Part shown: piece by piece, positions 1 to 54,625 of the stretch
Layout: every line of letters starts with the position of its first letter
Numbering within the stretch: the stretch's first letter is position 1
NCBI GenBank assembly: GCA_000091205.1
Contig: AP006495.2
Source: Cyanidioschyzon merolae
Taxonomy: Eukaryota
Reading direction: 5' to 3' (one strand)
Length of the DNA stretch: 64,000 nucleotides
Program-made: the position numbers and the translations under genes
The notes under the pieces: generated by a model
Seen by the model: only the letters and a program-made list of their open reading frames with translations
Told to the model about the DNA's origin: nothing
Databases searched by the model: none

Positions 1-2306
1 GGTCCATATCGGCCTTGAGCAAACAGTGGTACCGGCGTTGGGAGCAGTCTCTCCCGCACACGTCACACTGGTACTCAATGGCTGCCGCTGCGGCATATAA
101 TTCACGGCGCGTTGCCATGGGCGCCAGATGCATGCGCGATTTCGGAATACGCGACCCGTCGTCAAACAAGAATATGCGAGGAAGTCCGCCCTCAAGACCA
201 GCTGAGCTTGCTGCCAGGCTTCCCGAGCTGGTGGAGATAAGCGTCGCACCGGAACCCGAAAACCCGCCGCTAACAGTCTGTGGGCGCGTCTCGGGTGCCA
301 CTCCGTAGTTAATCAGGCCCCACTGCTCCAGAAAGGCGTGCACACGCATGACGGCACCCACATCGCCAGCGAGATGCCTCCGAACAGCTGTGCCTGTTAG
401 GTAGCGGGTCGGATCCTGCCGCCACGTGTCAATCATAAAATTTCGGTAAAGCATGTATACTTCGGGCGTTTTCGAAGCAAATTTCCCAGAGAAAAACTCC
501 GGCAACGCGCGTCGCTCAATGTCGTGAATCGCATCGATGCGAAACCATCGGCTGTGCGCGGGAACACGAATCGGCGACTTTTCACCAATCGCCGTGGCAG
601 CAGCCGCAGCCGGAAGCGTTTCCCGCTCCGCGAGGCCACCGAGTGCCTCGGCGACGCGACGCGGTGCAAGCGATTCTCGATCACGTGGCGCGTGTGCTGC
701 CGGCCCCGGAAGCGCATCCTCTTCGGCTGCCGCAGCGTCATTCCGCTCTTTTCGTCGTTCGCGTAATGCTTCTCGCTGCTGTGCTAACCTCTTCTGTAGC
801 TGCTCATCCCGCGAAGATGCAGTTACATTGCGCATGCGCAGTGTCGCGTCATCTGGAACTAGCGGACGCACCGTTGGGCGTGAAATGCGCGGTGCAGCGC
901 CGGCCGCAGCGCTTGGCTGCTCCGCATCGACCGCAGCGCAAGTCTCCGTTGTGAACGTGATCGGGCCAGCAATATTCGGTGCCGGAACTTGCTCCGCGGG
1001 TGCATTGCTCGAGCTTCCCGCGTCCTGGCTCGCTATCGGCGGTGCCAAGCGAACCTTGATCTTCATCGGCTCTGCGGATTCCTCTCGGACGGCGCGCACC
1101 GTCACCCGTTCTGGCGTGCCGTCTGGCTCCGGCTTCACGGGACTCGGTTCAGCGGATTTTCGTTTCGACGGCGTCGGTGCTGCGGTCTTCGACTCGGATC
1201 CTCGCAGGTGGCCATCGATGCGCGAGGCCGATGGCGGTTTCCACTCATCGACATTGAGCTTCTCCTCTTCGGGTATTACCTCATAGTCGTTTTCATTGCA
1301 CCACTCATTGAACTTTTCGCAATCCTCGAGAAATCTTTTCTGCACATGCCATATTTTGCCCTCAATCACTCCGGAGAGATTCTCCTCCTCTCCGTGCAGT
1401 TCGCCGTCGGGATCTTCTACCTCCTGAGCGGGAATCCATGAATCGTACGAATCGGGAAAGTACCACCAGTGCGTCAGTACTTGATTCCCTTTCCTTTTCA
1501 GACTCACGCAGTAGTCCTCTGCCTCGGTCTCAGCCTCTGTCGTGCCGGGTGGATCGGGGTACACAATATGTGTTGCCTCGCGAGGCGACGAAACGACGGA
1601 CGCACCATGCTTCCTTGCAATGGCGCTGAGGCGGTCAATCTCCGCCGAACCCAATGCCGGTGCGAAAAACAACCGCGGCATCTGGAGCTGTTTCCGTTTT
1701 ATCAGTTCCCGCTCAACTTCTTGGAGCATCTCTAAAAAAACTCCAGTCATATCGGGTTTGTGGAGATCAAAACGCCGTATTCCACGAGCAACCCTGAACC
1801 GAAAACAGCATTCGATAATTGTACGCAATGAGCCGTGTGCCGAGTAGTCGTGAAAGAGACGATTCGGCAGTTTCGTCATGAAACCCCGAATTTCTGGCGG
1901 CTCGACGGAGTTCCGTCCGAGAACCCGCTCTTGAAACTGAAGCAGGTTACCGGTCAGGAGGCTCAGCGCGCGCGGGGAGACGTCCACAGAGTCACCGGGT
2001 CGAAACCCCAGTTGTTCCGGCGATTCAGCGTTTAGCTGTGCCGAGATTGCCTCGAACTTCGCAATTTGATGAGGATCCTCGTAGTCTTTCATGGATATAT
2101 TACAGGACTTTACCCGCTTCCGCCGCGAATCCGCAGGTCTCTGACCTTCAGCTGACGGAAAAGCAGTGTCTTCCCGCGCATCCGCTGCAGCTCCTGTGCG
2201 CACTTCTTCAGACGGGGTAGACGTCGACTTGTTCCCGTCCGGGATGTGTGTTCCGTTGCCTTGCTGCTCTCGCGCGGTGCGGGAGCGTCTCTTCCGCGGG
2301 GGAACC
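1..2306 (-). CDS. SWI/SNF complex subunit SWI3/SMARCC (BAF155/170-like). Partial: C-terminus lies beyond the window start
   Basis: A continuous minus-strand ORF opens at ATG 2306 and runs off the window edge, so it is absent from the ORF track. Translation matches the BAF155 N-terminal region (LLQFQERVLGRNSVEPPEIRGFMTKLP..., VLTHWWYFPDSYDSWIP, KIWHVQKRFLEDCEKFNEWCNENDYEV). It has a SWIRM domain (WFRIDAIHDIERRALPEFFSGKFASKTPEVYMLYRNFMIDTWRQDPTRYLT...FLEQWGLINYGV), then a ZZ-type zinc finger start (YQCDVCGRDCSQRRYHC). The start could instead be the internal Met MKDYEDPHQ near 2093. Confidence 0.7.
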
Positions 2307-2318
2307 ATGAAAAACACG

Positions 2319-4444
2319 TCACAGAGTTACTAGCTCCACCGAAAGACTTTCAAAAGTCGATAGCTTGAATATCAGTATACAGTAGTGGCGAGCTGCGCGC
2401 CCCAGATCATACGTCTCCAACTGATGCGCAGATGCCTCCCTGTCTTTTTTGGACCGGCCATCTACTACTGGTTTCAACTTGTTTCCGTAAAATTCCGCCT
2501 GGAGAGGTTCCCCCACAAAGTTGGCTCTTGTCAACTCTGGAGGCCTTCTTTCCATCACCGCACATCTCCTGATATTGATAGCGACATTAAAGTCTCGGTT
2601 CACAAACTCCATACGTTTCTTGCCATCATTGGTTGTACTAACCAATGCGATTAGTCCACGATCTTTCGCCCTCCCTTCCGGTGACTGCTTCGTCAGCGCT
2701 CCGTACTTTGATATATCCACAGGACTCCTCTGGCACTTTTCGATCTGCACGCTCTGGAGTATGCACCCCAGCTCATGGTGTGTATACGATGTTCGGAACT
2801 CATCTACAGGTATCGTAACGAGACGCCTTGTGCACTCCTTGTACGCTCTTGTCGTCGGAGCTGGTGGACATCCTTTTTGGGTCATCCAGCGCCCTGCTCC
2901 GCACGCTACTACGAGCCTCTGACTTTCATCCTCTTTGAAGGCACTCAACTCATTGAAAAAATTCGCGAATGCACGCGGTTTCCCACAATACAAGTTCATA
3001 CGCAAACGAGCCCACCGGGGCTTTGCATACTCATTCCACAGTGCATCCCAATGAGCAACGCGAACTTCCATGAATTCCTGACAAGCTTGAAAGTCTGCTC
3101 CGCGGCTCGTCATCTGGTTCATAGCTTCAAGGTGCTCTTGCATTCCTGCATTTCACGTCTCATTTTTCCCTCGCATTCAGTATTCCCGACTCTCGGTGAT
3201 ATCCCGCTCGTGAGAGGTTTAACTGATGCATGTCTTTCTGGCATAAATTGCCTTCAATACCATCCTCCGCACGCTTGGGTACTGCGATGTTATGATATTC
3301 GTATTCATAGGGTCCGCGCCATCGACAATGTCGTTCTCATGCACTTCCTGCGTCGTAGGATACACCTGCTTCTTTTCTTCATGCTTCGTCATGGGCGATA
3401 TCGAAGACGGACCAGTACGATCTGTCTCCAAGCGCCGATTGTGTACATATATGGCTACTCCATCGCGTTCGATCATCCCCGTGAGTACATTTCGCTTGTC
3501 CTTTTTGTGACGTTTGAAATCGAAGATATTCTTCCAAGTACGTCTCCTGCTTTGTACCGGTGAACTCTGTCTTCCTTACATCGAACTCCGGACAGATCTC
3601 CTTCATGATGCCGTACAGGATTCTGGAGTCGATCGTCACAACGCGTGACTTGATGTTGCACAACGGCAGGACGTTGAAGTGCTTCCCCAGAAGCGCAGCC
3701 TTCCGTTTCTCCGACTCTTCATTTTTTCCCGCGCCTACGTCCTTTCCAGTCTTGCGTTCCAGGTCTCGGTCCAAAAACACGAGATAGTGCAGGATTAGGG
3801 TATAGGATCCTTTACCATATTTTTCCATATTTGATATTTTTTCTTGTGAATTCGGCAGCCCCAGTACCGCAAGGTGCTTTCGAATAGCCGCGCGGATCAC
3901 AGAAGCTTCATTCCTTCTCCCGCGTGACATCTTCCCGTCGACGAGTTCGATCTCTTGTGCATTCTTACTCTCGTTCGCGACGCCATTGATCATGGCTCAT
4001 CTCCCTTTCCGAGCGAGACCCGGGTACAGCGCATAGACGGCGCGTACCATGAAGCGTTTGACGTTCACGGTCATCTGATTCCTCAGGTTCGTGAGGTACT
4101 TCATTGCCCCGTAGGCGTAGACCTCCGCGAGTCACCTCTGTATCTAGAACCGCTGCAGCGGTATTTGGGTAATTCTCGTTGAGGGCATGCACTCGCTCAT
4201 TTTCGTCGACGTTTCCCCTCTACCAACGATCAAGTGGCAAATAAAGGTCCTGCTGAAAAAAATCCTCCGGAACCGCGACTGTTTTGATGTCTGTCAGGTC
4301 GCGATACATCCATTTCACCAAATGCATTAGTCCTGAAGGAGCCTTTACATTACTCACGGAGTATGACACGACACGGTTTCTGATGGCCTCTCGCATCTTT
4401 GCCTTGTACGCATTCTTGGTATGTCCAAGAAGACAGACTTTCAC
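2319..4444 (-). pseudogene. Fanzor-like RuvC nuclease, frameshifted (copy A)
   Basis: Three overlapping reading frames are needed to follow the protein homology seen in copies B and C. The acidic repeat (KHEEKK...NDxVVD) is present as one unit. The N-terminal part is heavily diverged. Confidence 0.65.
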
Positions 4445-13609: not shown

Positions 13610-14728
13610 GCCGGGCATTTCGCGGATAACCGGTACCAGCATCTTTCTCAGCGTTCCCGACGACGATTCCTGACCCTCTCACCGCGACAACCTGTATGCA
13701 TTGGATGGGGCAGTTGAGGCTTCTTCGCTTTCCGCCATGTCGTCTCACATATTGTTATGTATTCACGAAGCTCGAGACAAGTTCCTGCCTCTCGGGTGGT
13801 TGAATGTCGAGGATCCGCAGATCCATCCAGAACCCTCCGAGTGCACGAAACCAATATTTAGCAGCCTCTAGACCCCAAGATAAAATGCGAACGCGCCAGC
13901 GTTCTATCAACCACATTGCCGTGTTTCTCTTCAGATTCGTGCACTGAACGATCCCGCCATCCCGCGCACGCCGTGCATGCTGCAGTCGCGTGCGATCGTG
14001 CAGGAAGCGCCACCGCCATCGCCGCGCGCAGCGTCGACCGCTCCGCGTGCGCTTATGGAATCGGACATCCGCTGTCGTACGCGTGTTTGTAGCTCGCTTG
14101 CGTATCGCTGATGCATTCGATTGGAGCATGTAGCGCATGAAGTGCATCGGTATTGCGGGTGCGCTATGAAAAATATTCCAGGCATCCGCCCGGCTCCAAA
14201 GAAATCGCACATCCGCTCTAATCCGCATGCGACCCCGCACAAGCGCGCCCGCGATGCGGGGTGTGCGTGGCACCGCCCCCGAGCCCCGGTGCGCTGATTC
14301 GCTGCGCGGCGGCGGCGGCACTTATGGTCTTTGCGAGCGCGCTGGCCCAGTGGGCACGCAACAACTGCTGTCGGCGATCGTCGTCCGCGGTGGAAGGTGC
14401 GCGTCGCGGGCGCTGTGCCGCCGCTGCCCCCTACGATGATGGAGCTTCCGCGACGCTTGCCGCACATGTGGGCAGCGCATTTTTGTTCAATGATGGATGA
14501 AGCGGACATCTCTCGTGCGTCGCGCGCCACGCTCCACGTGTCCAGGTTTATCCAGGGCGGCCATTGGCGCGCTGTCCCGTCGGTTTTTGCTTCAAACGCA
14601 TCGTTTGGCGAAAATGGCGCTCGTTGCACGCTTCACTGCGCGGGAGAGCGCGTTCGTTCATAACTGACGCACCGCCCCAGAGTATACAAAGCAGTTCGCA
14701 AAGCAAAGAGCGTTGACTGGACTTGACT

Positions 14729-15862
14729 ATGACAGAGGAGGAAATAACAGCTCTTGTGATCGATAATGGTTCTGGGATGGTGAAAGCGGGTTTCGCGGGA
14801 GACGACGCGCCCCGTGCAGTTTTCCCATCCATAGTGGGACGTCCGCGACACCAAGCAGTCATGGTTGGCATGGGGCAAAAAGACTCTTATGTGGGCGACG
14901 AAGCGCAGTCGAAACGCGGTATCCTATCGCTCAAGTACCCGATCGAGCACGGCATCGTAACGAACTGGGATGATATGGAAAAGATCTGGTACCACACTTT
15001 TTACAACGAGTTGCGCATCTCCCCCGAGGATCATCCAGTGTTGTTAACCGAAGCACCTTTGAACCCGAAAGCCAACAGGGAAAAAATGACCCAGATCATG
15101 TTCGAGACGTTCAACGTTCCCGCGATGTACGTCGCGATCCAGGCAGTATTGTCGTTGTATGCTTCGGGGCGCACCACGGGTATTGTCGTCGACAGCGGCG
15201 ACGGTGTGACGCACACTGTGCCCATCTACGAAGGCTATGCCTTGCCGCATGCTATCATGCGCATAGATCTGGCTGGACGAGACCTAACCGACTATCTCGC
15301 CAAGATCCTTACAGAGCGCGGATATTCATTCACGACGACAGCCGAACGAGAGATCGTGCGAGACATCAAGGAAAAATGTTGTTATGTGGCACAGGACTAC
15401 GATCATGAGTTGGAGATTGCCTCATCGCAGCCGGCGAAAATCGATAAGCAGTATGAACTCCCCGACGGACAAATCATCACGATTGGGAGTGAGCGTTTCA
15501 GATGCCCGGAGGTGCTCTTCCAGCCGTCCTTGATCGGTATGGAGGGCGAGGGTATTCATAATGTTGCTTATCAGAGCATCATGAAATGCGATGTCGACAT
15601 CCGGAAAGATCTGTACGCAAACGTGGTTCTCAGCGGCGGCACGACGATGTTCCCAGGCATCGCGGATCGGATGCAGCGGGAACTCGCTAGTGTTGCACCA
15701 TCTTCGGTGAAGATCAAGCTTGTAGCGCCAGCGGAGCGCAAATATAGCGTGTGGATCGGCGGCAGCATTTTGGCCTCGTTGAGCACTTTTCAGCAGATGT
15801 GGATTAGTAAGGCGGAGTATGACGAGTTCGGACCCTCTGTGGTACACCGCAAATGTTTCTGA
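14729..15862 (+). CDS. ACT: actin
   Basis: Intronless 377-aa ORF from the first ATG at 14729 (the track start 14723 is a TTG). Canonical actin sequence throughout ([28 protein letters not shown], ...[20 protein letters not shown]). TGA stop. Confidence 0.97.
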
Positions 15863-17510: not shown

Positions 17511-20500
17511 ATGGAGCGACGAGCGAGTGGCTCGCGAGCGCCATTGACTCCAGTACAGCCTGTTAGCGAAGATGTGCCGCAAAGCCGGGGGAGAACTCCC
17601 GAAGAAACCCGACAGACAACACCAGAGCGTGCCCTGAAGCGTGCGCTTTCACCGACTTTCTCCGAGAAGACTACGAAAAGCAAGACAAATTCAATCCATA
17701 GTTCGAAAAACAAGCGAGTCTCCTTCGGAGGTCAGGAAGTGAAGTTCTACGAACGTCATGAGTTTGAGTGGTCTTCGCCGCCGGCACCGTCCCCGTCGAG
17801 GCGTCAGTCTCTGGAGCCGCAGGGAGACCACGCATATCCCGGTGTTGCGTCGTCGAGCTTTGCAGGGCGCGTTTCGAACACGCCCAGCGCTTATGAGCAC
17901 GAACCGAATGTGCGTGCCGCAGCAGCAAAGACGCATACTGGAAACAACACACTAGACGCGCCTAGTCCGCATCGTGACCTGCCGCACTTGCTCGCGACTG
18001 CATGCCCGACTGTGGGGTCGATGGAGAGCGACGACGACAACACGATACAGAGCGGCTCCAGTCTGAGCGAAGCGACGCTAGCGCAAGTGGCCTACGGAAT
18101 CAGATCCTATGCCTCCGGCGCCGCAGATGATGCAACGTCTTCAACGAATGAGGACGACTCGCTTCAGTACCGAGAACGTTTCAGCGGAAGCAGTGAGGGC
18201 CTCAGCCTGTTCATGGATGAAGACATCACGAAAGCAGTCGGACATCCGCGCATGTCGATGCCTCTGACTGGGACGACGTCCCTAACGAGGAGCGTCACGC
18301 GAACGCTGCTAACCGGGGGCGAGCGCTTCGGCCGGCGGGCTTCGCTCAGCCGGCCACCTCTGCCGCGCCCTCGGCGATCTTCAAGGCTATCGACCGGCTC
18401 GTGGCGTGCAACGAGCAACGTTGACTATCAGGGAACAACGAGGGGGAATCGGCGGGACTCGATCGATGATAATATTACTGGCAAGGTGCCTTCGCTGGCT
18501 GCTCTCATCGACGCTGACTCGGAAGAAACTGCTGTAGGAGATCGCTCGCGCGAGCGCTTCGCCCATGAAACCGATGCGGGGGACAACATACGCCCGTCGT
18601 CCACACCTGGCAAGCTTCGCTACGAGGACGAGCCCCCGAAGTTCCCAAGCATCCAGGAGGGAAGCTCGTCCCAAGAGCCTTCGCTTTCTCATCACAGCGA
18701 CTCGGGCAGGAATTGTGCGAACAGCGAGGATACGCCACGGTGGCGATCATTATGGTCGACCGATATTCGTGATGCTCAACTGGGGATCGTCGCGAACACA
18801 TCGCCCACGGTAGCGACTTGCGTTCCCCCAAGGAAAGAGTCCAATTCACCGATAGCCGGTTCAATATCTGAGGTGCAGCGAGACGAGGAATCTGGTGGTC
18901 TCACGACGGTTCCGGAAACCAGTGCCCTCCTTGAAGACATAACAGGACAGGTGCCGAGGCTAACTGCCCTGATAGACGAAGACAACGAGATATCTGATTT
19001 GCATCTTCAGCAAATGCCACAGGGAAACGGGAACAGTCAAATCAGTGTACATGGGGGCGTTTGCCGCGTAGCGTCCGAACAGGCGAACAGTGCGTCTAGG
19101 TCCTTCGCGGCCGACACAAAGAGTCCGGCCCTGTCGCCGGACCTGACGGCTCGAGACTTGATTCCGCAGCAGAGCGAGAGCCCCCAGCGGCGGGTCACTT
19201 TGGGATCCGTCGGTGCCCCGATTCAACAAAGTACTCGTAGTATGCACGGATTCGATACGAGTACAAGTGTTGCACGGCGTCGATCGTTGGCAGCTAGCGT
19301 TCGACGACTGAGCATGAAAGCGTCGCTTGTGCAGACGCTTTCTGCATCCAAAGAGATACACTTGCGAGAAGTCCATTCGGGAATGAAAGCGAATTCGCAT
19401 TCGAAGTTGGGTGCCTCGCCAGAGGCCGAACCACTCGGCCGAGTCCTGCAAGAACGATACAGTAACCAGATAGTGCGTCTGGAGCGGGATCCTAATGAAA
19501 CAGCGAAAACTGTCGTAGCGACTCAGAGCAGTACGATTGGCAAAGGTGCACCGCGAGATGACACGGGGCTCGAAAGCTCTTCGCTTCCCGCGTCAGAGGC
19601 GTCCGTCGCTTCCGCGCCGGGAAACGCTGTATTCAAGGATTTCCTCTATGCGGCTGGGGTCAGATTCCTCGACGATCTCTCTACGAGGAGGCGCATCACC
19701 TCTTTTGGGGTTCCCAGCAACCGAATATGTGTACAGCCGGATTCGCTCGAACAGCACATCAGAGTCGCCTGCATAACAGTCGCTCTGCTTGGCGCATTTC
19801 AATATTCATGTGAAGTGCTCGCATCAGAGAATGGAAAGCTCGCCACTGAAATCGCGAAAGCTGAGGAGGAATTCCGTACCCGTTGGCTCTTTACGCGGCT
19901 CATTGAGCTCCACTTTTCTGGCTCAGAACCGAATCTACTGACTCGATACCAGCTGCAACTCAAACGATTGAAAAACGTTGGCCGTCTTCGAGCTCGTTGC
20001 GAGTGGTATCTCTGGCGAGCGCGGCACGAGCAACGGATTCAGGTACAGCTCAGAGCCCAACAGGAAAACCTGCAGAACGATCTCGCCCAACTCTGCGGAC
20101 TAGCAGAGAACCTGCGCGCCACGATCTCTGCTGCCACTGAGGATGCGATCACCAGTGGACTGGGGCAGCTCTCCACGGACCCAAAACTCGTACACGAGCG
20201 AAACCTCCACAACCAGAATACTTTACGACACGTCGAAGAGCGCGATGCTCAAATTCAGGAAACACGCTCGCGCCTCGAGCAGCTCCATCACGAACTCAAC
20301 CGGCTTTCTGAACACAAGGCCCAGCTCGCAACCGAATGCCTCGCTTTGCGAACTCGGCACCAGGAGCTCCAGGCAAAGGCTCGTCTCGGCGATGCAGCGA
20401 GCTGCTCGTTAATGCTCGCTGAACAACAGGACTCATTTGATATCCTGGTGTCGTTGACGGCCTGCCGACCGATTTCTATTTCGAACGACACGCTGTGTGT

Positions 20501-21185
20501 CCGTGTCGGGTCTACCGTAGACATTCGATGTTCTTTTGTCCAAGAGAAAATGCCTTCCGACGCATGCGGTTCACTCGTCCTCAACAATGTTCAGGCGTGT
20601 GGCGTGACGCCTCCAAACGAGGCAACGGAAGCGCCGATTCTCATCGAGCGTGTAGCGCAAGCCGTTGTCGCATCGTTTACAGCACAGCAGCGAGAGCACT
20701 TCAGCGTGATGCGAGCCATCTCCGGGAGGCCCCTTTGGCAACTGCGCTGGGTCCTATTCGCCGTCGCTAGAGCAGTAACTGAACTCCAGGCTCTCCTCCG
20801 CAATATTAGCATATGGAAGCGGACCAAGCCATATGAAGTTGAATATCGGGAGTCCCATGATCACGCTGGCCTTGTGCATGCACTCTTTTCTGATATAACG
20901 AAACATATTCGTGTTGAGGTCATCCTCAAGCTAGAGCCGGCATCTCAGGCACTGTGCGGAATCCAGCTTCGCCTGCACGACATTGTTTGGCACCTTCCGA
21001 ACCGCTGCGAGCGACTCTCAGCGTCGTTCGTGGCCATCATATCGAACAACTTGGAACAATGGGCACGACGAGAACAAGACGTTGAAGTTGCACCGCCAGC
21101 ACAACACGTGCGACTCGCAGCGCTTATCGAGACCACCCTCGACGCAGTAGCGCAGACCCTGCAAGAAGCTCGACACGCTCCGTAA
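17511..21185 (+). CDS. large coiled-coil protein; candidate KNL1/Spc7-family kinetochore scaffold
   Basis: 1224-aa ORF from ATG 17511. N-terminal KRVSFGGQEVKFY (17712-17750) resembles the PP1-docking RVSF motif. Two copies of a motif follow: DDNITGKVPSLAALIDAD (about 18466-18519) and LEDITGQVPRLTALIDEDNE (about 18921-18980). Next comes FLYAAGVRFLDDLSTRRRIT (about 19641-19710), then a long coiled coil, then a ~250-aa C-terminal globular region. The family assignment is an inference. Confidence 0.6.
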   Translation: MERRASGSRAPLTPVQPVSEDVPQSRGRTPEETRQTTPERALKRALSPTFSEKTTKSKTNSIHSSKNKRVSFGGQEVKFYERHEFEWSSPPAPSPSRRQSLEPQGDHAYPGVASSSFAGRVSNTPSAYEHEPNVRAAAAKTHTGNNTLDAPSPHRDLPHLLATACPTVGSMESDDDNTIQSGSSLSEATLAQVAYGIRSYASGAADDATSSTNEDDSLQYRERFSGSSEGLSLFMDEDITKAVGHPRMSMPLTGTTSLTRSVTRTLLTGGERFGRRASLSRPPLPRPRRSSRLSTGSWRATSNVDYQGTTRGNRRDSIDDNITGKVPSLAALIDADSEETAVGDRSRERFAHETDAGDNIRPSSTPGKLRYEDEPPKFPSIQEGSSSQEPSLSHHSDSGRNCANSEDTPRWRSLWSTDIRDAQLGIVANTSPTVATCVPPRKESNSPIAGSISEVQRDEESGGLTTVPETSALLEDITGQVPRLTALIDEDNEISDLHLQQMPQGNGNSQISVHGGVCRVASEQANSASRSFAADTKSPALSPDLTARDLIPQQSESPQRRVTLGSVGAPIQQSTRSMHGFDTSTSVARRRSLAASVRRLSMKASLVQTLSASKEIHLREVHSGMKANSHSKLGASPEAEPLGRVLQERYSNQIVRLERDPNETAKTVVATQSSTIGKGAPRDDTGLESSSLPASEASVASAPGNAVFKDFLYAAGVRFLDDLSTRRRITSFGVPSNRICVQPDSLEQHIRVACITVALLGAFQYSCEVLASENGKLATEIAKAEEEFRTRWLFTRLIELHFSGSEPNLLTRYQLQLKRLKNVGRLRARCEWYLWRARHEQRIQVQLRAQQENLQNDLAQLCGLAENLRATISAATEDAITSGLGQLSTDPKLVHERNLHNQNTLRHVEERDAQIQETRSRLEQLHHELNRLSEHKAQLATECLALRTRHQELQAKARLGDAASCSLMLAEQQDSFDILVSLTACRPISISNDTLCVRVGSTVDIRCSFVQEKMPSDACGSLVLNNVQACGVTPPNEATEAPILIERVAQAVVASFTAQQREHFSVMRAISGRPLWQLRWVLFAVARAVTELQALLRNISIWKRTKPYEVEYRESHDHAGLVHALFSDITKHIRVEVILKLEPASQALCGIQLRLHDIVWHLPNRCERLSASFVAIISNNLEQWARREQDVEVAPPAQHVRLAALIETTLDAVAQTLQEARHAP

Positions 21186-21374: not shown

Positions 21375-21647
21375 TCATTCCGCTGCACCATGCGTCGCAC
21401 GCGTATAGACCAACTGTGCCTGGTGTGTCGACACAGGCTTCACGAGGTCTTTCGCGATGAGCTCTCGAATCGCAGACCGGGCGAGGCTTCCGTTTATTTT
21501 CAAACGTTCCACAAGGACACTCGTGGTAATCAGTTTGTATTTTGCGGCTTCCTTAAGCAGGCGATCGTGCGTTTCGGGATCAAATATTACTTTATGGTCG
21601 GATTTCTCCTTCGTTTTTCCCTTGGACCACTTTTTCTTACCTGCCAT
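21375..21647 (-). CDS. RPS25: 40S ribosomal protein S25 (eS25)
   Basis: Reads [85 protein letters not shown]. The first ATG is at 21647; the track start is a TTG further upstream. An extra N-terminal exon cannot be excluded. Confidence 0.85.
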
Positions 21648-22070
21648 TGTGTTGCTCGTGTGAGAGAGCAATGAAATGTCACTGATAGGATTGCGTGGCG
21701 GAATAGATGACGACGTAGCGCGGGCGCATTCTTGTACTTTATGGACAATCTATACATTTGAAAACAAACTGTACAATCGTGGAATCTTTATCCCTGGGCC
21801 TCGAGGCGTAGGCGACGCCCTTAATGGAAATGCCAGTCATTGAAACACACATACTGTTTCGTCTGCTGTGATAGCGTTCGCACCTGCCGGTAAACGAACT
21901 TGCTGCGGCTACGTTTCGGCGGACTTGAACTGATTGCTCCGCGTCGTGATTCTAGACGAGGGAAATTCTTCTCCTTGCGATAACGTTGCTTGCCGGGAAA
22001 CCACTGTCAACGAGGTGAAACCGTGTTGTACGCATCAGCTCCCCAGACGTCCGGGTCGTTTGCGTGACGC

Positions 22071-23501: not shown

Positions 23502-25691
23502 TCGATGGATAATGGGGTTGAGTTGCTCTGCGATGCGCATACGATGTCAATTTCGAAACTGCACCCGTGTCCATAGTGCTACCGGCTTCGTTCGGAAGCT
23601 GATCTCGACAGAACATACTTCGATGCGAAAACGCTGATAGGCCGTTCGCAAGAGCTAGACGTGCTCTGCTGCAGGTGTTTCTTTGTCTCGAGGGCGGCTA
23701 CGGCGACGCGGCTGCCCCGCTTTTATGTGCCTCTTGAAATTGAATGTTGCAGGTCGCACTCGGATGAAAAAGTTCAGGCAGACTAGACCCACAAGATCGT
23801 CGTGGATGCACACTATTGGGGCAACTCCGTCTGCTTCATGGTGCGTTTTTCCGCCAAAGTTCCACAGATGCTTAGCGCACTGAACTGCTCTCGTGATCGA
23901 GTTGTATCAGGGCCCCAGCACAGTACTTGACTGAATCTGCAGCTTCCGCCCTGGATCGGAACGGGAGGGTCTTAGCGCATTCTATGCTGCACCCTTTCCA
24001 GAGCCTAGTTCGATGAAGAGAGAACACTCAACTGCTCCATCTGTTACTGCCTTGCGATTTTTCTCCGAACTTTTTCTTCGATGTAGATTCTCGGCATCTC
24101 AAGCAGAGCAACAAGCATGTATGGACTGGTGCGTATTCTTAGGATGCCCGGTCGTTTTTGTCCGTGTCTCCTGCGACGCGTAGCTGCTGGAATCTGTTAC
24201 ATCACCCGAATCAAGATGTGTCGCGACGCTCTTGTACATGAGTTCGCAAACTACCCGATATTATCATCCACTTCTTGCGTAGAAGCCTCCACTCTTCTCC
24301 TTTCATTTCATACAGCATGCATAAACCACGCATTCTCCAGTTTTTCGATTTTCTGTTTCAAGGAAGGTCCTGGACGCGGCAATCTGCACCGCTGGGTTGA
24401 CGACAGAAAAAAATTGAAGTCTTCCTTTGAAGACTTCCGCACAAGCTCAAGTCGAAAGTTCAGTGAATTTGTCCCGCCGAATAATCGATTCCGTTCGAAA
24501 GACAATTCCAGCTCTCTTTGTGGCCATGGACGAAAAGCGCGCGACTGCAGCATGAGGCGCCTCTCGGGATACGCCCCCGGACGCTCCCGTCTCTTCGCTT
24601 TCCATGGACAGGGGTCTTTGACGAGGAATCCCGGCATTGCAGCGATCGCTTCGAGTGGAGAGTGCGTCCTCGCGTCGTACGAAGTGAGCGAACAAGGATC
24701 GAAATTTCGTGGCTCTTTCTGCAGCCGGAATTCGCGTTCCGCTACTTTTTTCATCATGGGCAGTATTGTATGCCAAACGCCCTCTATCGAACGCGATGGC
24801 ATGCGTTTGCCTCTACAGAGGACAGGTTTCTCGTCTAGGGTATCGCATAACAGAAGCTAGTGGTAGTCGGAGATGGCGTCGGACGCGGGAATAAACCTTG
24901 GCACCGAGGCGAGCTTCCTGTTCCCGTCAAGAGCATGCACTGAGTGGTGAACCAGGCGTTCGGGCACGAAAAAAGTCCTTTCAGACGATACGTTATGGTG
25001 GACATGCGGGAACAGCAGACAATAACAAGGTGTCAACGTTGCGAATGGCGCACCGAGGCTGTGGACAAAGGCCATGAGCAACGCAAGCGAAGCATAGATT
25101 GCGGCTTCCAGCTTTGCATGAAGTGCATCGACAACAACCGGAAGCTCCAAAATCGAGTCTTGAGGCTGCTGTCAACATCGGTCGACTGGTGACATCGAAT
25201 CTGGATGGCAACAGGAGACACGCGTTTTTCTAAAGCCGGACATGAGCGACAGCAATCGAAGCAGTCTCGGAAATATCTCGCAAACGCTGCTGTTACTGAC
25301 GATGAAAAGGGACCCAAACTTTAGTTTGTACGTCCATGCTAGGTGGCAGGACCAGTTTCATTTTGACCTGGCACGGGTGAAGCAGATAGAGTGCATTTCC
25401 GGGTAACGCAGTTCGATCAGTGCGAGCATGCCCACCCTGGCCGAAAAGAACTCGCGATGAGGTATCCAGTTTGAAACTACGGACCTCTGTTGGGATACGC
25501 TTGCCTTGCATGCGTTAGACAATCTTCGATGGTTTCTTGGCGAACTTCCATGCAGTTGATTCGTCTGGACCCTGGCATCGGGTCTGAGGCAGTTTCAACC
25601 AGTCGCGATGGCGCAGACAAACTTGGCGGGTAGTTTTTAATTTTGCTTCAACTTCGCGTGCGGTGTTGGCACTTGTGTGAGCAGCGGTACC

Positions 25692-27974
25692 ATGCACGCC
25701 TCCCATAAAGTGAACCACTTCTTAAAATATCTGGTTCTGACATTTGCTTTCGTTGTGTTGTGTTCCCTTCAGCCGAAAAGGCCTTGTGGTGGCAGCGATG
25801 TTGTTCGATTGCGTGCCTATCAACGAAACTATGGAAAGCTTCAGCCGCTTCACCTCACTGTGCGTCCTGGACACGTTCTCACCTCTTGTCGACACTTCTG
25901 TACAGATGAAGGCGTTTGTCGACCAATCAAGTTCGAGCAAAGGCGCTTGCGATTTCTGGAAAAGTTCTGTGGCGAACAGCGTGTTGCGCTGAGCGGCCCG
26001 GCTCTGCTGTTTCTCAAGCCTTCGCGCTTTACGCTGCAGTGTTCGAAAACCGCGAACTCTTTTGAGGTGCTATCCCAGGGTCCTATGTGGCTCGATGTGC
26101 ACCGCGTAAGGATGATGAGTGGAACGGATAGTCCCACAGCGGTAAGCCAGCACACGCGAGCATCTCCTGCTAACACGGGACCTTTCGATACCAATCGATT
26201 TCGTCGGGAAAACGCGAGCTCAGAACTCCTAGTTCATTATGTCTCAGATCCGCTAAGTGTGGGAGAGTCGCGATATTTCGTATCTCACATCGAGTTTCGG
26301 ATTTCGCAGCTACCAGAGGTGCACGACGCTATGCGGAACGCATCCGCTGGAAACCGTAACTCGGCTCAGGCGGTCTCTGTTAGATTCGTGCCAACGGATC
26401 CGAACAAGGATCCGCGCCCTTACCTAGTCGACCCTGTCATGAGTCGGCAAGTGGTGCACGCGTGGTCCTGCGGCAATGAGGCAGCGAGCCGCAAGTTGCA
26501 AGCCTGCGCGCATTACATACCACAACGGCGCTCCGTGGGCGAACTCGCTTCTCTCTGGATGCTCATCCTCGGTGTCATCATCTTAGCTGGCCAGAATCAT
26601 TATCGGGGCGCCCGGCGGGAGTCCCCGAGATCACTCAAGAGCACTCCACAGGGTCATAACTGGTCCCGCATCTCGCGGCAGAGGGCGTCATCGCTTGATG
26701 ATGGCGTCCATCACATCCCTGTCGACTGCGAGCACGGGGTTCATCGGGGTCTTGATCGACCGGGGTCGACCGTTGCGCGTGCTTCGCACGTTTCCGACAC
26801 CTCAAAACCTCTGGAATCTGCAAGTGCTTTCGGGGTATCCACTGCGAATACCATCGAGGCTCCTCGCGATTCTGATATGCATGCGACATGTGCCCGAATC
26901 CCCACTCCAGCATGGGCGTCGCGCACTTTCCTCATTTTGTTTCTCATCCTGCAGAATTCTGCAATGGCGTTTTTCTACTTTATTGGTATTTTTTGTCCTC
27001 CCTCCTCTTGTGTGAAGCTTGTCGCGATCGATGTAGCCACGGCACTGGCATGCAGCGTTGGTGCCGCTTGCTGCACAGAGCTCTGGAGTCTCGTCTGCTG
27101 GATCGACTGCGAAAGCGGCAACGAGCGGGCCAGTATCGGCGAGGCCCAGGATGTACCTCTCGAAAAAACGCCTCCGGATGTGTCTGCACATGCCGCGAAT
27201 GTTGAACCTATTGCTGCGAGCGTTTCCAACGGGAAGCGCGCGCCCCTCACGGACAATTATTCACCTGGGGCGGGTTCGGCTGAGCCTTGGAACGAGTCCG
27301 CTAGCAAAGGCAGCATCTTCCGTACGCAGTGCGGTGCGCTGCCGCGTCTTGCAGCGAGACACTCGGAACGACTGCGACTTCTGGAGCGACTCAATTTCAA
27401 TCCGCTCATGCTGTGGTTTTTTCGAATTTTTCAGTGGAAACGCTCCACTTTTTGGTTGATACGGGATACAAATATCATACCATGCTGGTTTACGGGCCCA
27501 GTTATATACTATTTGGGCTTGCGCCTGTTGATCACGCTGTTGCTTTGGAGTGGAGAGCCTTCGCGCCCGGAGGCACTGTTCGTTAACCTCCAAGCCATGA
27601 TTCCAGTTTTCTTGGGGTCAAGTTTAGGTGCAAAAGTCGCCCGTTCGATTCGCTCCAGACAAGTTCCTAGGTGGTTCTCAAAGGTGCAACAAACGGAAAT
27701 CTTCCAAGTTTCACCCGCGCGCATACTGCAGGTATGGTTTCTCGTTGATGTGCTTCTCAACGGCTGGTTTTATCCCGGTGCGGGTAGACCGTTACCGTTT
27801 ACACTGATTTTTCGTTTGCCGCGGGCCTGTGCCGGTGATTTTTTGGACAATTTAACAGAGTATTCGAACAGTGATGAAAAGTTATACCTGGCTGCCTATC
27901 AGCTTTTGCCTTGGTACGGTTGGAATGCTATATGCAAACTTTTTGCGGCCTTGGTTCTTTTCGTGGAGGCTTGA
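25692..27974 (+). CDS. hypothetical multi-pass membrane protein with an N-terminal signal/anchor
   Basis: First ATG at 25692 (the track start is a GTG). A hydrophobic N-terminus (FLKYLVLTFAFVVLCSL) is followed by a ~400-aa soluble region, then several C-terminal hydrophobic helices. No family recognised. Confidence 0.45.
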   Translation: MHASHKVNHFLKYLVLTFAFVVLCSLQPKRPCGGSDVVRLRAYQRNYGKLQPLHLTVRPGHVLTSCRHFCTDEGVCRPIKFEQRRLRFLEKFCGEQRVALSGPALLFLKPSRFTLQCSKTANSFEVLSQGPMWLDVHRVRMMSGTDSPTAVSQHTRASPANTGPFDTNRFRRENASSELLVHYVSDPLSVGESRYFVSHIEFRISQLPEVHDAMRNASAGNRNSAQAVSVRFVPTDPNKDPRPYLVDPVMSRQVVHAWSCGNEAASRKLQACAHYIPQRRSVGELASLWMLILGVIILAGQNHYRGARRESPRSLKSTPQGHNWSRISRQRASSLDDGVHHIPVDCEHGVHRGLDRPGSTVARASHVSDTSKPLESASAFGVSTANTIEAPRDSDMHATCARIPTPAWASRTFLILFLILQNSAMAFFYFIGIFCPPSSCVKLVAIDVATALACSVGAACCTELWSLVCWIDCESGNERASIGEAQDVPLEKTPPDVSAHAANVEPIAASVSNGKRAPLTDNYSPGAGSAEPWNESASKGSIFRTQCGALPRLAARHSERLRLLERLNFNPLMLWFFRIFQWKRSTFWLIRDTNIIPCWFTGPVIYYLGLRLLITLLLWSGEPSRPEALFVNLQAMIPVFLGSSLGAKVARSIRSRQVPRWFSKVQQTEIFQVSPARILQVWFLVDVLLNGWFYPGAGRPLPFTLIFRLPRACAGDFLDNLTEYSNSDEKLYLAAYQLLPWYGWNAICKLFAALVLFVEA

Positions 27975-39560: not shown

Positions 39561-41782
39561 GTACGTTTCTTGCCATCATTGGTTGTACACACTAATGCAA
39601 GCAGCCCTCGCACTTTCGCCCTCGTTTCCATTTGCTCCTCCATCAGCGGTCTGTACTTTGCTATTTCCTCAGGGCTCCTCTGGCACTTTTCCATTTCGAC
39701 CCTCTGAAGTGTGCACCCCAGCTCGTGGTGTGTATAGGACGTTCGGAACTCGTCTACAGGTATCGTAACGAAACGCCTTGCGCACTCCTTGTACACCCTC
39801 GTCGTTGGAGCTGGCGTAGTGCCGTTCTTGGGCGCCCAGCGCCCTGCCCCATACGTTACTACGAGCCTCTGACTTTCATTCTACTCGAGGGCGCTCAATT
39901 GATTAAAAAAATTCGCGAACGCCCGCTGCTTTTCACAGTAGAGATTCATTCGCAACCGAGCCCACCGGGGCTTGGTGTACTCCTCCCACAGCGCATCCCA
40001 ATGCGCAACGCGAACTTCCATGCATTCCCGAAAAGCTCGAAAGTCCGCTCCGCGGCTCGTCACCTCGCTCAAAGCTTCCAGGTGATCCTTCATTCCTGCT
40101 CTCCATGCCTCGATTTTCTTCCTTGCATTCATGATTCCCGATTCTCGATAGTACCTCGCTCTCGAGAATCTCAAAAGACGCATATCTTTCTGACGTAAGT
40201 TACCGTCAGTCCCATCTTCCGTACGCTTCGGTGCTGCGATGGTTATGATATTCGTATTCCCGGGGTCCGCGCCAAGGACAAAGTCGTTATCTTGCACTTT
40301 CTGGGTCGCAAGATCCGCCTCCTTCTTTTCTTCATGCTTCGCCGCGCTAACGACAATGTGGTTATCCTCCATCTCCTGCGTCGCAGAATCCGCCTCCTTC
40401 TTTTCTTCATGCTTCGTCACGTCAACGACAAAGTCGTTCTCATGCACTTTTTGCGTCGCAGGACCCACCTCCTTCTTTTCTTCATGCTTCGCCTCGTCAA
40501 CGACAAAGTCGTTATCCTCCACCTCCTGCATCGCAGGATCCTCCTCTTTGTTTTCTTCATCTTTCGTCACGGGCGCAGCTGAGGGAGGGACTGACCGATC
40601 TTTCTTCAACCGCCGATAGTGTACACACAAGGCTACTCCATCGGTTTCGATCATCCCAGTGAACAACTTTTGCTCGCTCACTCTCAGACGTTTGAAATTG
40701 AAGATATTCTTCCAGTACGTCTTCCGGTTTTCGCCGGTGAAGTCCTCCCTGCTAACAATGAACTCCGGACTGATCTCCTTCATGATGTCGTGAAGGACTG
40801 CGGAGTCGATAGTCACAAAATGTGACTTGATATTGTACAATGGAACCGCGTTGAAGCGCTTACCCATTAGGAAGGCCTTCCGTCTCTCCCACTGTTCATT
40901 TGTCTCTTCACTCAGCTTCATCTCTACTTTGCGTTCGAGTTCACGGTCCAGAAACACAACTTAGCGCAGGACGAGGCGGTAGTATCTTTCCTTATCTTTT
41001 TTCAGCTCTGATATCTTGTCTGTTGGATTCGCCAGACCCAAAACTGCACGGTGCTCTTCTACAACTGCACGGATTACAGAATCCTAATTTGTGCTCCTGC
41101 GTGACGCCTTCTTGTCGACAAATTCGAACTCATCTTCACACTGTCGATTGTTCGTGATGCCATTGATAATCGTCCATATCCCCTTGCGAGAGACGCCGGG
41201 ATAGAGTGCAAACACGTCGCGTATCATGAAACGTTCGTGGTTCATCGTCAATTGGTTCTTCAGGTTCGTAATGTACTTCATTGCCCCGTATGTGTAAATA
41301 TTTCCGTCACCGCAGTATCGATTACCCTCGAAGCAGAATTCCGCGAAGTTTTCGTGGAGGACTTCCACCCGCTCATTTTCCCTCCGCGCTTCCTCTGTAC
41401 CAAGCATCAGCTGACGAATAAAGGTCTTATCGAAAAACTCGTCCGGAATCTCGACCGTTTCCATGTTCGTCACGTCGCGATACATCTCCCTCGCTAGATG
41501 CATCAGTCCTGACGACGCCTTGAAAATACTCTTGGAGTACGAATCGAAACGTTTTTCGAATGCGTCTCGCATCTTTTCCCTGTAGTGATCCTTGATATGT
41601 TTAAGAAGACCGGCTTTCGCCACCATCTCGTCGTACAGTTGTCTTTCTTGCCGCCTTAGACGTTGAGCCTCCCCCTTTCGGTTCTTCTTCTCTTCCTTTT
41701 CTTCTGGACTCGGTACTGTTTTTTGTTTTTTTCTGGCAGCCGGCGACCCTGGACCTCCAGGATCGTCGATTTGCTTTTTCAT
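39353..41782 (-). pseudogene. Fanzor-like RNA-guided RuvC nuclease homolog, interrupted by stops and a frameshift (copy B)
   Basis: Three consecutive ORFs align colinearly to copies A and C. Catalytic D (RuvC-I), E (RuvC-II) and D (RuvC-III) motifs are all present in this copy. Confidence 0.75.
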
Positions 41783-42756
41783 AGCTTTCCTATTTTAGTT
41801 TTTTTGAAAAAGAATGCTCTTTGAACCCTTGTGTTACATACAGCGAAAAACACTTGACTAGACTTGTTTGAGGGCTGAAACAGAAACGAGCTGAAAGACT
41901 GTACTTGGCTACCACCTCAACGGATATCCGACTTTTTACAGCTGAACAACACGCTCCTGGTCAGCATCGCGTTTCCCTTCAACGGCGGCATGTGCATCGC
42001 GTCAGTTGACTGCCTGATCTCCGAGATGCGTTCATTAAGCGCAATGCGTCCACCGCACGAGACGCCACTCCGATCGATGAAGGACACGTGTCCGACACCC
42101 CGCATTGGCACATGCGTGTTCGCATCGCATTGCAGCCAAACTAAAGTATCGAAAATAGGAAACTCATGTAGAACGATCTCTTGCTATAGACTCTGTCGCT
42201 GGTGCCGAAGCTACTGCCCATCGCAGTACCGCCTTGACATACATGGAAATGTTGGGACCTGACGCGATACCTCGCGATGCTTCTATCAAAAGCATAGCGT
42301 TCTCTGCGGCTTACCGTTGTGTGGATGACGTATGCATCACTCTTCTCAAAAGGAATTTCGTTAGTTTTATTCATCGTAACCAAACTAGGTACGGTGGGAT
42401 TCCTGAACACGGACATACGTTTAATGCCGATGCTTGTCATGCATGCTGCACTGACGCTGGAATGAGGAACTGACCTGAATTATGCTTCTATCCTGCGTCA
42501 TAGGCTGGTACTGGTGACCGTTCAAGTCATTTCCATGCTATCGTCGTAGCCAACTTATGGTGCCCGCTACGTTCCCCGGATCCGGTGATCATGGTAGAGG
42601 CACACCACACATGTAGCGTCCATATCTGCCAAGACGTTCGAGCCTTGCATCTCGGCTGACACGATCGAGGAACCCGACAAAAGCACATACTGTATTCTGG
42701 TCTACTCCATAAGATTAGCTTCAAGAGCCTAACCCGTACATCGACGACCGCACACG

Positions 42757-51974: not shown

Positions 51975-54625
51975 ACACCGCAAAACGCCTTTCAAAAGAC
52001 AAAAGCTGTCGCCGGCAGTGCACAGCAGTGGCGAGTGACCCGCCCTGGACAAGACCTCTCAACTAATCTGCAGACGCCTTCCAGCTTTTCTCGACCGGCA
52101 ACCTACCAGTGATTCCAACTTTTTCTCATATACTTCCACCTTCAGAGATTGTTCCACAAAATTCCCTTTTGTCGGCCCGGGAGGTCTCTTTTCCATCACC
52201 GCACATCTACGTATACTGAAAGCGGCGTTAAAGTCTCGGTTCACGAATTCCATGCGTTTCTTCCCGTCCGTCCGACTCACTAGTGCGAGTCGCTCACGAA
52301 CTTTCGCCCTCCTTTCCATTTGCTCCTCCGTCAGCGGTCCGTACTTTTTTATTTCTTCAGGGTTCCGCTGGCACTTTTCCATCTCGGCCCTCTGAAGTGT
52401 ACAGCCCAGTTTATGGTGTGTATACGATTTTCGGAACACATCTATCGGTATCGTAACGAAACACCGTGCATACTCTTTGTAGGGTCTTTTCGCTGGAGCT
52501 GGCATAGTGCCTTTCTTGGGCGCCCATCGTCCTGCTCCGAATGCCACTACGAGCCTCTGACTGTCATCCTCCTTCAAGGCGCTCAACTCGTTGAAAAAAT
52601 TCGCGAATGCACGCTTCCTCCCACAATACATGTTCAGTCGCAGACGAGCCTACATGGGCTTCGAATACTCCTTCCACAGCGCATCCCAATGAGCAACGCG
52701 AACTTCCATGAACTCCCGAAAAGCTTTAAAGTTCGCTCCGCGGCTACTAGCCTCGCTCATAGCTTCCAGGTGATCCTTCACTCCTGGATTCCACTTCTCA
52801 AATTTCTTCCTCTCATTCATCATACCGGATTCTCGGTAGTATCTCGCTCTCGAGAATCTCAAAAGACGCATATCTTTCTGACGTAAGTTACCGTCAGTCC
52901 CATCTTCCGCACGCTTGGGCACAGCGACGGCTATAAAATTCGTGTTTCCAGGGTCAGCGCCAAAGACAAAGTCGTCCTCATGCACTTTTTGCGTCGCAGG
53001 ACCCGCCTCCTTCTTTTCTTCGTGCTTCGCCTCGTCAACGACAAAGTCGTTATCCTCCACCTCCTGCATCGCAGGATCCTCCTCTTTGTTTTCTTCATCC
53101 TTCGTCACGGGCGCAGCTGAGGGAGGGACTGACCGATCTTTCTTCAACCGCCGATAGTGTACACACAAGGCTACTCCATCGGTTTCGATCATCCCAGTGA
53201 ACAACTTTTGCTCGCTCACTCTCAGACGTTTGAAATTGAAGATATTCTTCCAGTACGTCTTCCGGTTTTCGCCGGTGAAGTCCTCCCTGCTAACATTGAA
53301 CTCAGGACTGATCTCCTTCATGATGCCGTAGAGGACGCCGGAGCCGATAGTCACAAAATGTGACTTGATATTGTACAATGGAACCGCGTTGAAGCGCTTA
53401 CCCATCCGGAAGGCCTTCCGTCTCTCCCACTGTTCATTTGTCTCTTCACTCAGCTTCATCTCCGCTTTGCGTTCGAGTTCACGGTCCAGAAACACAACTT
53501 AGCGCATGACGAGGCGGTAGTATCTTTCCTTATCTTTTTTCAGCTCTGATATCTTGTCTGTTGGATTCGCCAGACCCAAAACTGCACGGTGCTCTTCTAC
53601 AACCGCACGGATTACAGAATCCTAATTTGTGCTCCTGCGTGACGCCTTCTTGTCGACAAATTCGACCTCATCTTCACACTGTCGATTGTTCGTGATGCCA
53701 TTGATAATCGCCTATATTCCTTTGCGAGAGATGCCCGGGTAGAGTGCAAACACGTCGCGTATCATGAAACGTTCGTGGTTCATCGTCAATTGGTTCTTCA
53801 GGTTCGTAATGTACTTCATTACCCCGTATGTGTAAATATTTCCGTCACCGCAGTATCGATTACCCTCGAAGCAGAATTCCGCGAAGTTTTCGTGGAGGAC
53901 TTCCACCCGCTCATTTTCCTCCCGCGCTTCCGCTGTACTAAGCATCAGCTGACGAATAAACGTCTTGTCGAAAAACTCGTCAGGAACATCGACTGTTTCC
54001 ATGTGCGTCACGTCGCGATACATCTCCCTCGCTAGATGCATCAGTCCTAAAGAAGCCTCAGGAAAACTCATGGAGTCCAACTCGCAACAGTTTCTGATGG
54101 ACTCCCGCAATTTTTGCTTTTACGAATTCTTGCTATGTCCGAGAAGACAGGCTTTCACGACCATCTCGTCGTACAGTCGTCTTTCTTGCAGCCATTAACG
54201 TAGGGCCTCCCCCTTCTGCTTCTTCGTCTTGTCTCGTTCCTCTATGTTTGGCTCTATGTATCGTTTTTTTCGCCAGCCAGCGATACTGGCCCTCCAGGGT
54301 CCTCCACGTCGCTGTCCAGAACATTGGTTTTTTATTTTTTGAAATAGAACGCACTATGAACGTCTCTGCTCTAAACCACGAAAAATACTCGAATACTCTT
54401 ATTTGAGGGTTGAAACACAACTGAAATAGAAGCCGTACTTGGCTACGACCTGACCGGAAATCCAACTTTTACATTACGGCCACACGCCAGAGATTAAGAT
54501 CACGTTTCCTTTCAACGGCGACATGCGCGTCGTGTCTCATGTCTGCCTGATCTCCCGGGTGCGCTCACCAAGCGCAATGCGTGCACCGCGCGAGACGCTG
54601 CACCAATCGATAAAGGCCTAAGATC
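51975..54625 (-). mobile_element. Fanzor/TnpB-like element, copy C (pseudogene)
   Basis: ORFs 53712..54110, 52650..53495 and 52059..52631. RuvC-I FGADPGNTNFIAV. RuvC-II is degraded to IPIDVFRKS (E to V). RuvC-III is degraded to RDFNAAFSI. Two TGG-to-TAG nonsense changes (about 52645 and 53700). It shares the same TAG/TAA in-frame stops as copy B (53500-53640). Two acidic repeat units. Confidence 0.8.

Follow-up and report, generated by a model that had tools for sequence, protein, structure and literature searches.

Orthologs of the kinetochore scaffold KNL1 have been defined in all eukaryotic supergroups, the red alga Galdieria included, according to passages of Tromer, Snel and Kops 2015 (PMC4558858), and van Hooff et al. 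2017 (PMC5579357) cover 90 species, Cyanidioschyzon merolae 10D among them. Here we report on a stretch of 64,000 nucleotides of C. merolae DNA (contig AP006495.2 of assembly GCA_000091205.1), called the window below, and in particular on its gene CMM239C, which a preliminary description made from the letters alone had put forward as a candidate KNL1/Spc7 scaffold. This candidate is borne out by a match to the Spc7 profile, a predicted tandem RWD fold, an exact entry in the published Knl1 set, and motifs conserved across the lineage in a fast-evolving disordered N-terminal half; we assign the protein to the KNL1 family because of this profile, fold and motif conservation. We give a probability of about 0.9 to the reading that the gene is the KNL1 (Spc105/Spc7) of the C. 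merolae outer-kinetochore KMN (KNL1, Mis12, Ndc80) network and works through the mechanism proposed below.

Human KNL1 (CASC5) is about twice as long as the C. merolae protein; its MELT repeats, about 19 of them, are flanked by T-omega and SHT, and it also has KI motifs. The C. merolae protein has instead 2-3 sites with a Pro/Leu/acidic extension, and its tandem RWD is 16-17% identical to that of human KNL1, which is known in Nsl1-bound and KMN-bound structures (PDB 4NF9, 4NFA, 8PPR and 8Q5H). Spc105 of Saccharomyces cerevisiae and Spc7 of Schizosaccharomyces pombe, the founders of Pfam PF08317 (KMN junction in PDB 9S4Q and 9S5N), are of a similar length class and share with it the N-terminal RVSF, a few MELT-type sites and a Spc7 region with a conserved W-Y-x-W-R helix, but their sequence similarity to the C. 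merolae protein is weak (E ~1e-5). Fungal MELT cores read M-[DE]-[LI]-T (e.g. in relatives P0048 and P0081), whereas the cyanidiophyte cores have no Met at -3, counting from the Thr as 0. The KNL1 of Galdieria sulphuraria (GSUL006022_Knl1) shows the same motif order as C. merolae: KRVSFGG.Q(V/I)K(I/F) and FFMDED(V/I)S come first, then repeats of the form E-I-T-x-x-I-P-x-L-x-x-L-x-E-[DE] (their Pro at +4), RRKSIAANVKRLS and FL..A.VRFLD, and finally the Spc7 domain and a globular C-terminal part. Relative P0027 of our searches bears the same motif strings as this published protein. Two repeat copies of Galdieria match the pattern; their residue at -2 is E, and one of them, M-T-A-E-I-T, is closer to M-E-L-T. 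In C. merolae this position holds D or N, and the middle copy is decayed. The Galdieria protein matches the profile in the Spc7 region and at the beginning of the RWD part only. The C. merolae gene has the following features, in window coordinates and residues of its product.

17511..21185, plus strand: complete intronless gene KNL1/Spc105/Spc7 (CMM239C), an open reading frame (ORF) from ATG with 1224 residues and a stop codon
17691..17771, plus strand: putative protein phosphatase 1 (PP1) docking block, residues 61-87, with a weakly SILK-like SIHS, KRVSF (residues 68-72) and GGQEVKFYERHEFEW; from ortholog conservation
18210..18269, plus strand: FMDEDIT block, residues 234-253, the invariant MELT-like T240 followed by G..PR.S...T; from alignment
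18465..18518, plus strand: MELT-like repeat copy 1, DDNITGKVPSLAALIDAD, residues 319-336 (T323, with P327 at +4); from alignment and pattern
18717..18773, plus strand: decayed middle repeat, NSEDTPRWRSLWSTDIRD, residues 403-421; from alignment
18933..18983, plus strand: MELT-like repeat copy 2, EDITGQVPRLTALIDED, residues 475-491 (T478, with P482 at +4); from alignment and pattern
19275..19313, plus strand: basic block RRRSLAASVRRLS, residues 589-601, with two R-R-x-S sites; nearly invariant from R589 to S601
19635..20129, plus strand: Spc7 homology domain (Pfam PF08317), residues 709-873, opening with FKDFLYAAGVRFLDD; 61.5 bits
19746..20387, plus strand: long helical (coiled-coil) stalk, residues ~746-959; AlphaFold2 (AF2) helices at low predicted local distance difference test score (pLDDT), with weak coiled-coil Pfam matches
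20397..20711, plus strand: RWD-N, residues ~963-1067, helix, four strands, helix; from the predicted structure
20733..21176, plus strand: RWD-C, residues ~1075-1222, helix, four strands, two helices; from the predicted structure

The PF08317 match is well above the gathering score of 34.5 bits (E=8.8e-17), and FLYAAGVRFLDDLSTRRRIT, which the preliminary description had likened to the conserved start of the Spc7 domain, lies inside it at residues 711-730. The block F..FL...GVRFLDD.S.RRR.TSFGVPS is conserved at the domain start in the cyanidiophyte orthologs. Searched against the PDB with the single sequence (phmmer) and with a four-ortholog profile (hmmsearch), the protein has a sole sequence match, yeast SPC105 (chain 9s4q_Kl). 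A profile of the C-terminal alignment yielded one further relative in a word-indexed search; in an exhaustive search by HMMER it reached Galdieria and fungi and collected 66 relatives at E<=1e-3 with lengths of 344-1563 residues. All 18 relatives that we scanned are Spc7 proteins in Pfam, and five of the 18 also match Knl1_RWD_C and five MELT_2. The C-terminal profile search that had been suggested as a check hence gives the Spc7 family above threshold. The protein had also been called a compact, divergent KNL1 ortholog; the orthology stands, but 'compact' does not, as 1224 residues fall within the length range of the relatives.

The last 524 residues are rich in Leu/Ala. The AF2 model of residues 700-1224 is poor (pLDDT 56.8), while a model trimmed to residues 950-1224 is usable. 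In the longer model the stalk is predicted as helices at model residues 47-102, 110-182 and 192-260 (model residue 1 at residue 700), again at low pLDDT, in line with the ~200 residues of heptad-rich coiled coil expected from the letters. The trimmed model likewise agrees with the expected C-terminal globular region: it is predicted to be a tandem RWD fold, closest to that of human KNL1.

The product of CMM239C is identical to BAM81078.1 / XP_005537114.1 of strain 10D over 1224/1224 residues (100%). It is named 'hypothetical protein' at NCBI and 'Spc7 kinetochore protein domain-containing protein' in UniRef. The exact sequence is present in file Knl1.fa of Dataset EV1 of van Hooff et al. 2017 as Cyanidioschyzon_merolae_CMER002329_Knl1, the single Knl1 entry for C. 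merolae there, and the identification is therefore not new; the assignment was already known computationally and is correct rather than new. We found no mention of CMM239C by name in the literature searched. Given the published ortholog set and the UniRef name, the identification itself adds little and only the NCBI label lags. The value of our analysis is a motif-level map of KNL1 in a minimal, transformable red alga, which holds a candidate PP1 site, three candidate phospho-threonine sites, a decayed repeat, a basic block and predicted RWD boundaries.

We aligned the C. merolae protein end to end with its orthologs from Cyanidiococcus yangmingshanensis and two further cyanidiophyte lineages, which are 29-40% identical overall. 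The N-terminal half is poorly conserved, and its conservation lies mainly in a few islands; KRVSFGGQ, both repeats and FL..(A/G)GVRFLDD are invariant or nearly so. The N-terminus MER..R.PLTPVQP is kept across the orthologs, which supports the annotated ATG start. The N-terminal 700 residues contain 15% Ser, consistent with the long Ser-rich stretch noted before.

One of the islands is S61..S65..KRVSFGGQ..K.YE.HE.EW.SP., with S61, S65, K68-Q75, K78, Y80, E81, H83, E84, E86 and W87 invariant in the four cyanidiophyte orthologs. The N-terminal RVSF motif of the preliminary description, KRVSFGGQEVKFY at residues 68-80, falls in it, and its KRVSF core holds in all four. [KR]RVSF is found at the same N-terminal place in Galdieria, in other red-algal-type relatives and in fungal Spc7-family relatives. 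The SILK equivalent, SIHS in C. merolae and SI[IV]G in relatives, is weakly similar to SILK. PP1 docking on KNL1 was reportedly described by Liu and colleagues in 2010, and by analogy the KRVSF of C. merolae KNL1 would be a PP1-binding site.

The two MELT-like repeat copies proposed from the letters are real. C. merolae KNL1 has two matches to the pattern [ILVM][TS]..[ILVM]P.L..L[ILVM]..D, none of 20,000 shuffles of residues 1-700 has any, and the repeats are hence more than a chance motif. They are nearly invariant in the orthologs, which answers the question of their conservation in relatives. The earlier account was incomplete as it overlooked two further sites. FMDED(I/V)T at residues 234-240 is a third site and more MELT-like than both repeats; F234, M235, D236, E237, D238, T240, G244, P246, R247, S249 and T253 are invariant in its block, and FFMDED(V/I)S is the counterpart in two Galdieria-type sequences (P0022 and P0027). 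Altogether three [DE]-[DN]-I-T sites, at T240, T323 and T478, are conserved in cyanidiophytes. The other overlooked site is the decayed middle copy. The extended repeat pattern has two copies in C. merolae and three in each of three distant cyanidiophyte orthologs, and the middle repeat of C. merolae, in which P409, L414 and D418 alone are retained, aligns with an intact copy in P0002, P0003 and P0004. A compensated frameshift was ruled out: neither of the other two reading frames encodes an intact copy, and the repeat therefore decayed by substitutions. It is unchanged in environmental C. merolae-like sequences (99% identical gene).

To describe the repeat we took 33 units from 13 proteins, chosen by a pattern that demands Thr or Ser at 0, Pro at +4, and hydrophobic residues at both -1 and +6. 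The consensus of these pattern-selected units is [DG]-D-I-T-x-x-[ILVM]-P-S-L-x-x-L-[LIVM]-x-[DE]-D, with the last Asp at +13. Outside the selection pattern, Asp at -2 (16/33), Leu at +9 (26/33) and Asp at +13 (21/33) are conserved. More distant relatives show an N-terminal KRVSFGG.Q(I/V)K followed by 1-4 units of D/E-I-T-x-x-[ILM]-P-x-L-x-x-L. Some Galdieria-type copies read M-E-I-T or A-E-I-T, and the repeat is therefore bridged to the canonical M-E-L-T. Passages of Tromer et al. 2015 treat the Galdieria repeats as MELT repeats with a conserved Pro at +4 from the Thr. The repeat in red algae is a lineage-specific form of MELT with a fixed extension, i.e. a hydrophobic residue at +3, Pro at +4, Leu at +6, Leu at +9 and an acidic residue at +12/+13. 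This extension probably adds contacts with the reader of the repeat.

The remaining islands fall outside the PP1-docking block and the MELT-like sites. The basic block RRRSLAA.VRRLS at residues 589-601 is nearly invariant in cyanidiophytes and reads RR(R/K)SIAA.VKRLS in P0022 and P0027. Its R-R-x-S sites are of the kind that basophilic (Aurora-type) kinases may phosphorylate. To our knowledge no described KNL1 motif matches this block. The acidic and Ser-rich block DDDNTIQSGSSLSEATLAQVAYG at residues 174-196 (window 18030-18098, plus strand) follows DD.NT..S....EA.LA..A.G with many positions invariant in cyanidiophytes, and has no obvious counterpart among the known KNL1 motifs.

How would this protein work? 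By comparison with yeast and human, the tandem RWD would dock KNL1 onto the Mis12 complex via the tails of Nsl1 and Dsn1, a step modelled on PDB 4NF9 and 8PPR, in which the RWD is docked to Nsl1 and the KMN network, and the coiled coil ahead of it would pair with Zwint-1/Kre28. KRVSF may recruit PP1, and Aurora phosphorylation of its Ser would probably block this. On unattached kinetochores Mps1 would phosphorylate the acidic I-T sites T240, T323 and T478. The phosphorylated sites would then dock MadBub, a checkpoint protein of the Bub1 type, canonically by way of Bub3, which reads phospho-MELT according to passages of Primorac et al. 2013 (PMC3779320). This docking would start spindle-checkpoint signalling, and PP1 would reverse it after attachment. 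Candidate partners for these steps are on record: the C. merolae entries of van Hooff et al. 2017 include Zwint-1, four subunits of the Mis12 complex (Mis12, Nnf1, Nsl1 and Dsn1) and the Ndc80 complex, as well as MadBub, Mps1, Mad1, Mad2 and Aurora. The tetratricopeptide repeat (TPR) domain of C. merolae MadBub (Mad3_BUB1_I) scores 111.8 bits in Pfam, and by eye the protein has a KEN box and a CD1-like motif.

Several observations weigh against the reading of CMM239C as a KNL1 that works in this way. Knl1_RWD_C (PF18210) reaches 25.4 bits over residues 932-1069, slightly under its cutoff of 27.8. Both AF2 models were built on four sequences only, and the stalk region is of low confidence. The repeat cores are [DE]-[DN]-I-T and not M-E-L-T, i.e. 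the canonical hydrophobic residue at -3 is acidic here. The localisation, binding and phosphorylation of KNL1 in C. merolae are all carried over by analogy. The step from MadBub to Bub3 is affected most directly: the Bub3 orthologs listed by van Hooff et al. 2017 include one from Galdieria but none from C. merolae, and no Bub3 of Cyanidioschyzon or Cyanidiococcus is among the best 120 of 1270 matches to Galdieria Bub3. Run against 5.8 billion proteins, that query put four Galdieria species (60-95% identity) at the head of these best 120, directly followed by generic eukaryotic Bub3 at ~40%. No Bub3 locus from the metagenome sample bearing the C. merolae-like KNL1 is among the matches listed, and neither was even a Galdieria-type Bub3 recovered among the matches listed in the metagenome scan. 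A search of the literature for Bub3 in C. merolae found nothing. The GLEBS motif has no Pfam match in the MadBub of C. merolae, nor in that of Galdieria, which has Bub3. These search results agree with a loss or strong divergence of Bub3 in the Cyanidioschyzon lineage, short of proof. A possible absence of Bub3 beside conserved MELT-like repeats bears on the flexibility of the KNL1-Bub1 connection across eukaryotes.

We weighed three other explanations. Bub3 could have been lost in the Cyanidioschyzon lineage while the KNL1 repeats were kept and are read directly by MadBub (e.g. through its TPR) or by another factor, in which case the hydrophobic and acidic residues of the extension would make up for the affinity normally contributed by Bub3. 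Apart from the missing Bub3 entry and matches, this draws on the conservation of the repeats among Cyanidioschyzon, Cyanidiococcus and a third lineage, and on the TPR that MadBub retains. The KI motifs of vertebrates make a direct contact between the TPR and KNL1 and are a precedent. Another is given in passages of PMC10996584, in which the 'TF' motifs of Caenorhabditis elegans KNL1 are bound by the BUB-1 TPR. However, the absence of Bub3 rests on the best 120 of 1270 matches and not on a search of the C. merolae genome, the matches listed in the metagenome scan missed even the Galdieria-type protein, and GLEBS is an uninformative proxy as Galdieria likewise lacks the Pfam match. Galdieria also combines Bub3 with the same type of repeat, which is thus compatible with reading by Bub3. 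We consider direct reading by MadBub or another factor a tentative and rather unlikely explanation. If it is true, KNL1 would signal to the spindle checkpoint by a natural route independent of Bub3, in a eukaryote that is minimal and genetically tractable, with the repeats under purifying selection.

The repeats could also be some other short linear motif, either like the LxxIxE motif of PP2A-B56 or for an undescribed partner, so that FMDEDIT or nothing would be the MELT equivalent. The C-terminal half of the repeat, L-x-x-L-[ILV]-x-[DE]-D, is loosely similar to hydrophobic-acidic docking motifs, and passages of Tromer et al. allow 'other, yet unknown functions' for extra repeat motifs, but the same paper counts the Galdieria repeats as MELT repeats. 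The M-E-I-T and A-E-I-T copies of the Galdieria type tie them to the canonical motif, and the top conserved positions outside the selection pattern, D(-2) and L(+9), stand around the I(-1) T(0) core. We find this explanation quite improbable. The specific case of PP2A-B56 was rejected: if Leu +6 started an LxxIxE motif, its essential Glu would be at +11, a position which is not conserved (D6, Q6, A6, E5 and N4 of 33). The third explanation, a coiled-coil protein from outside the kinetochore that has no more than the Spc7 and RWD domains in common with KNL1, has nothing specific in its favour beyond the NCBI label 'hypothetical protein' and a kinetochore function proposed from sequence. The whole domain order together with RVSF and the MELT-like motifs fits KNL1, the published set has one Knl1 entry for C. 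merolae, and all scanned relatives belong to the Spc7 family; we regard such a protein as highly improbable. The KNL1 of the outer kinetochore remains our preferred reading of CMM239C.

Scans of the window for tRNAs and Rfam RNAs found none, and nothing non-coding therefore competes for the KNL1 locus. The ORFs of 102-163 residues that overlap the gene on the minus strand are shadows of the kind usual for a long GC-rich ORF. The neighbouring ORFs are intronless as well and encode nuclear proteins of the usual eukaryotic kind, among them a mitochondrial carrier, a RING E3 ligase, actin, TFIIF-beta, a SNF2 ATPase, a RETICULATA-like protein, a phosphoribosyl pyrophosphate (PRPP) synthetase, RPL3, a CRT-like transporter, a DUF829 protein and a DJC28-type protein. 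By composition the DNA could be taken for an intronless genome of the trypanosomatid kind, a reading that was rejected because the homologs and gene neighbours are those of a cyanidiophyte red alga and the protein equals CMM239C. A contig from a hot-spring metagenome carries a 99% identical KNL1 gene in the same order RING, actin, KNL1, RPS25 and TFIIF-beta. The gene of ribosomal protein S25 lies between KNL1 and TFIIF-beta at window 21375-21671 (minus strand) as an ORF of 98 residues; in the syntenic metagenome contig (L081) the call is a PF03297 product of 90 residues. An ORF of 765 residues at window 25677-27974 (plus strand) has no Pfam match; it is also called in the syntenic contig, where it runs off the end, and is probably a real lineage-specific gene. 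The actin ORF at window 14723-15862 (plus strand) is listed from a TTG with 379 residues, compared with 377 in the metagenome call, and the true ATG is probably two codons downstream of the listed TTG. Three stretches of 2 kb, at window 2001-4000, 40001-42000 and 52001-54000, have strongly negative GC and AT skew, i.e. a pyrimidine-rich plus strand, and overlap minus-strand or mutually overlapping ORFs without Pfam matches (2319-3143, 39881-40957 and 52650-53495).

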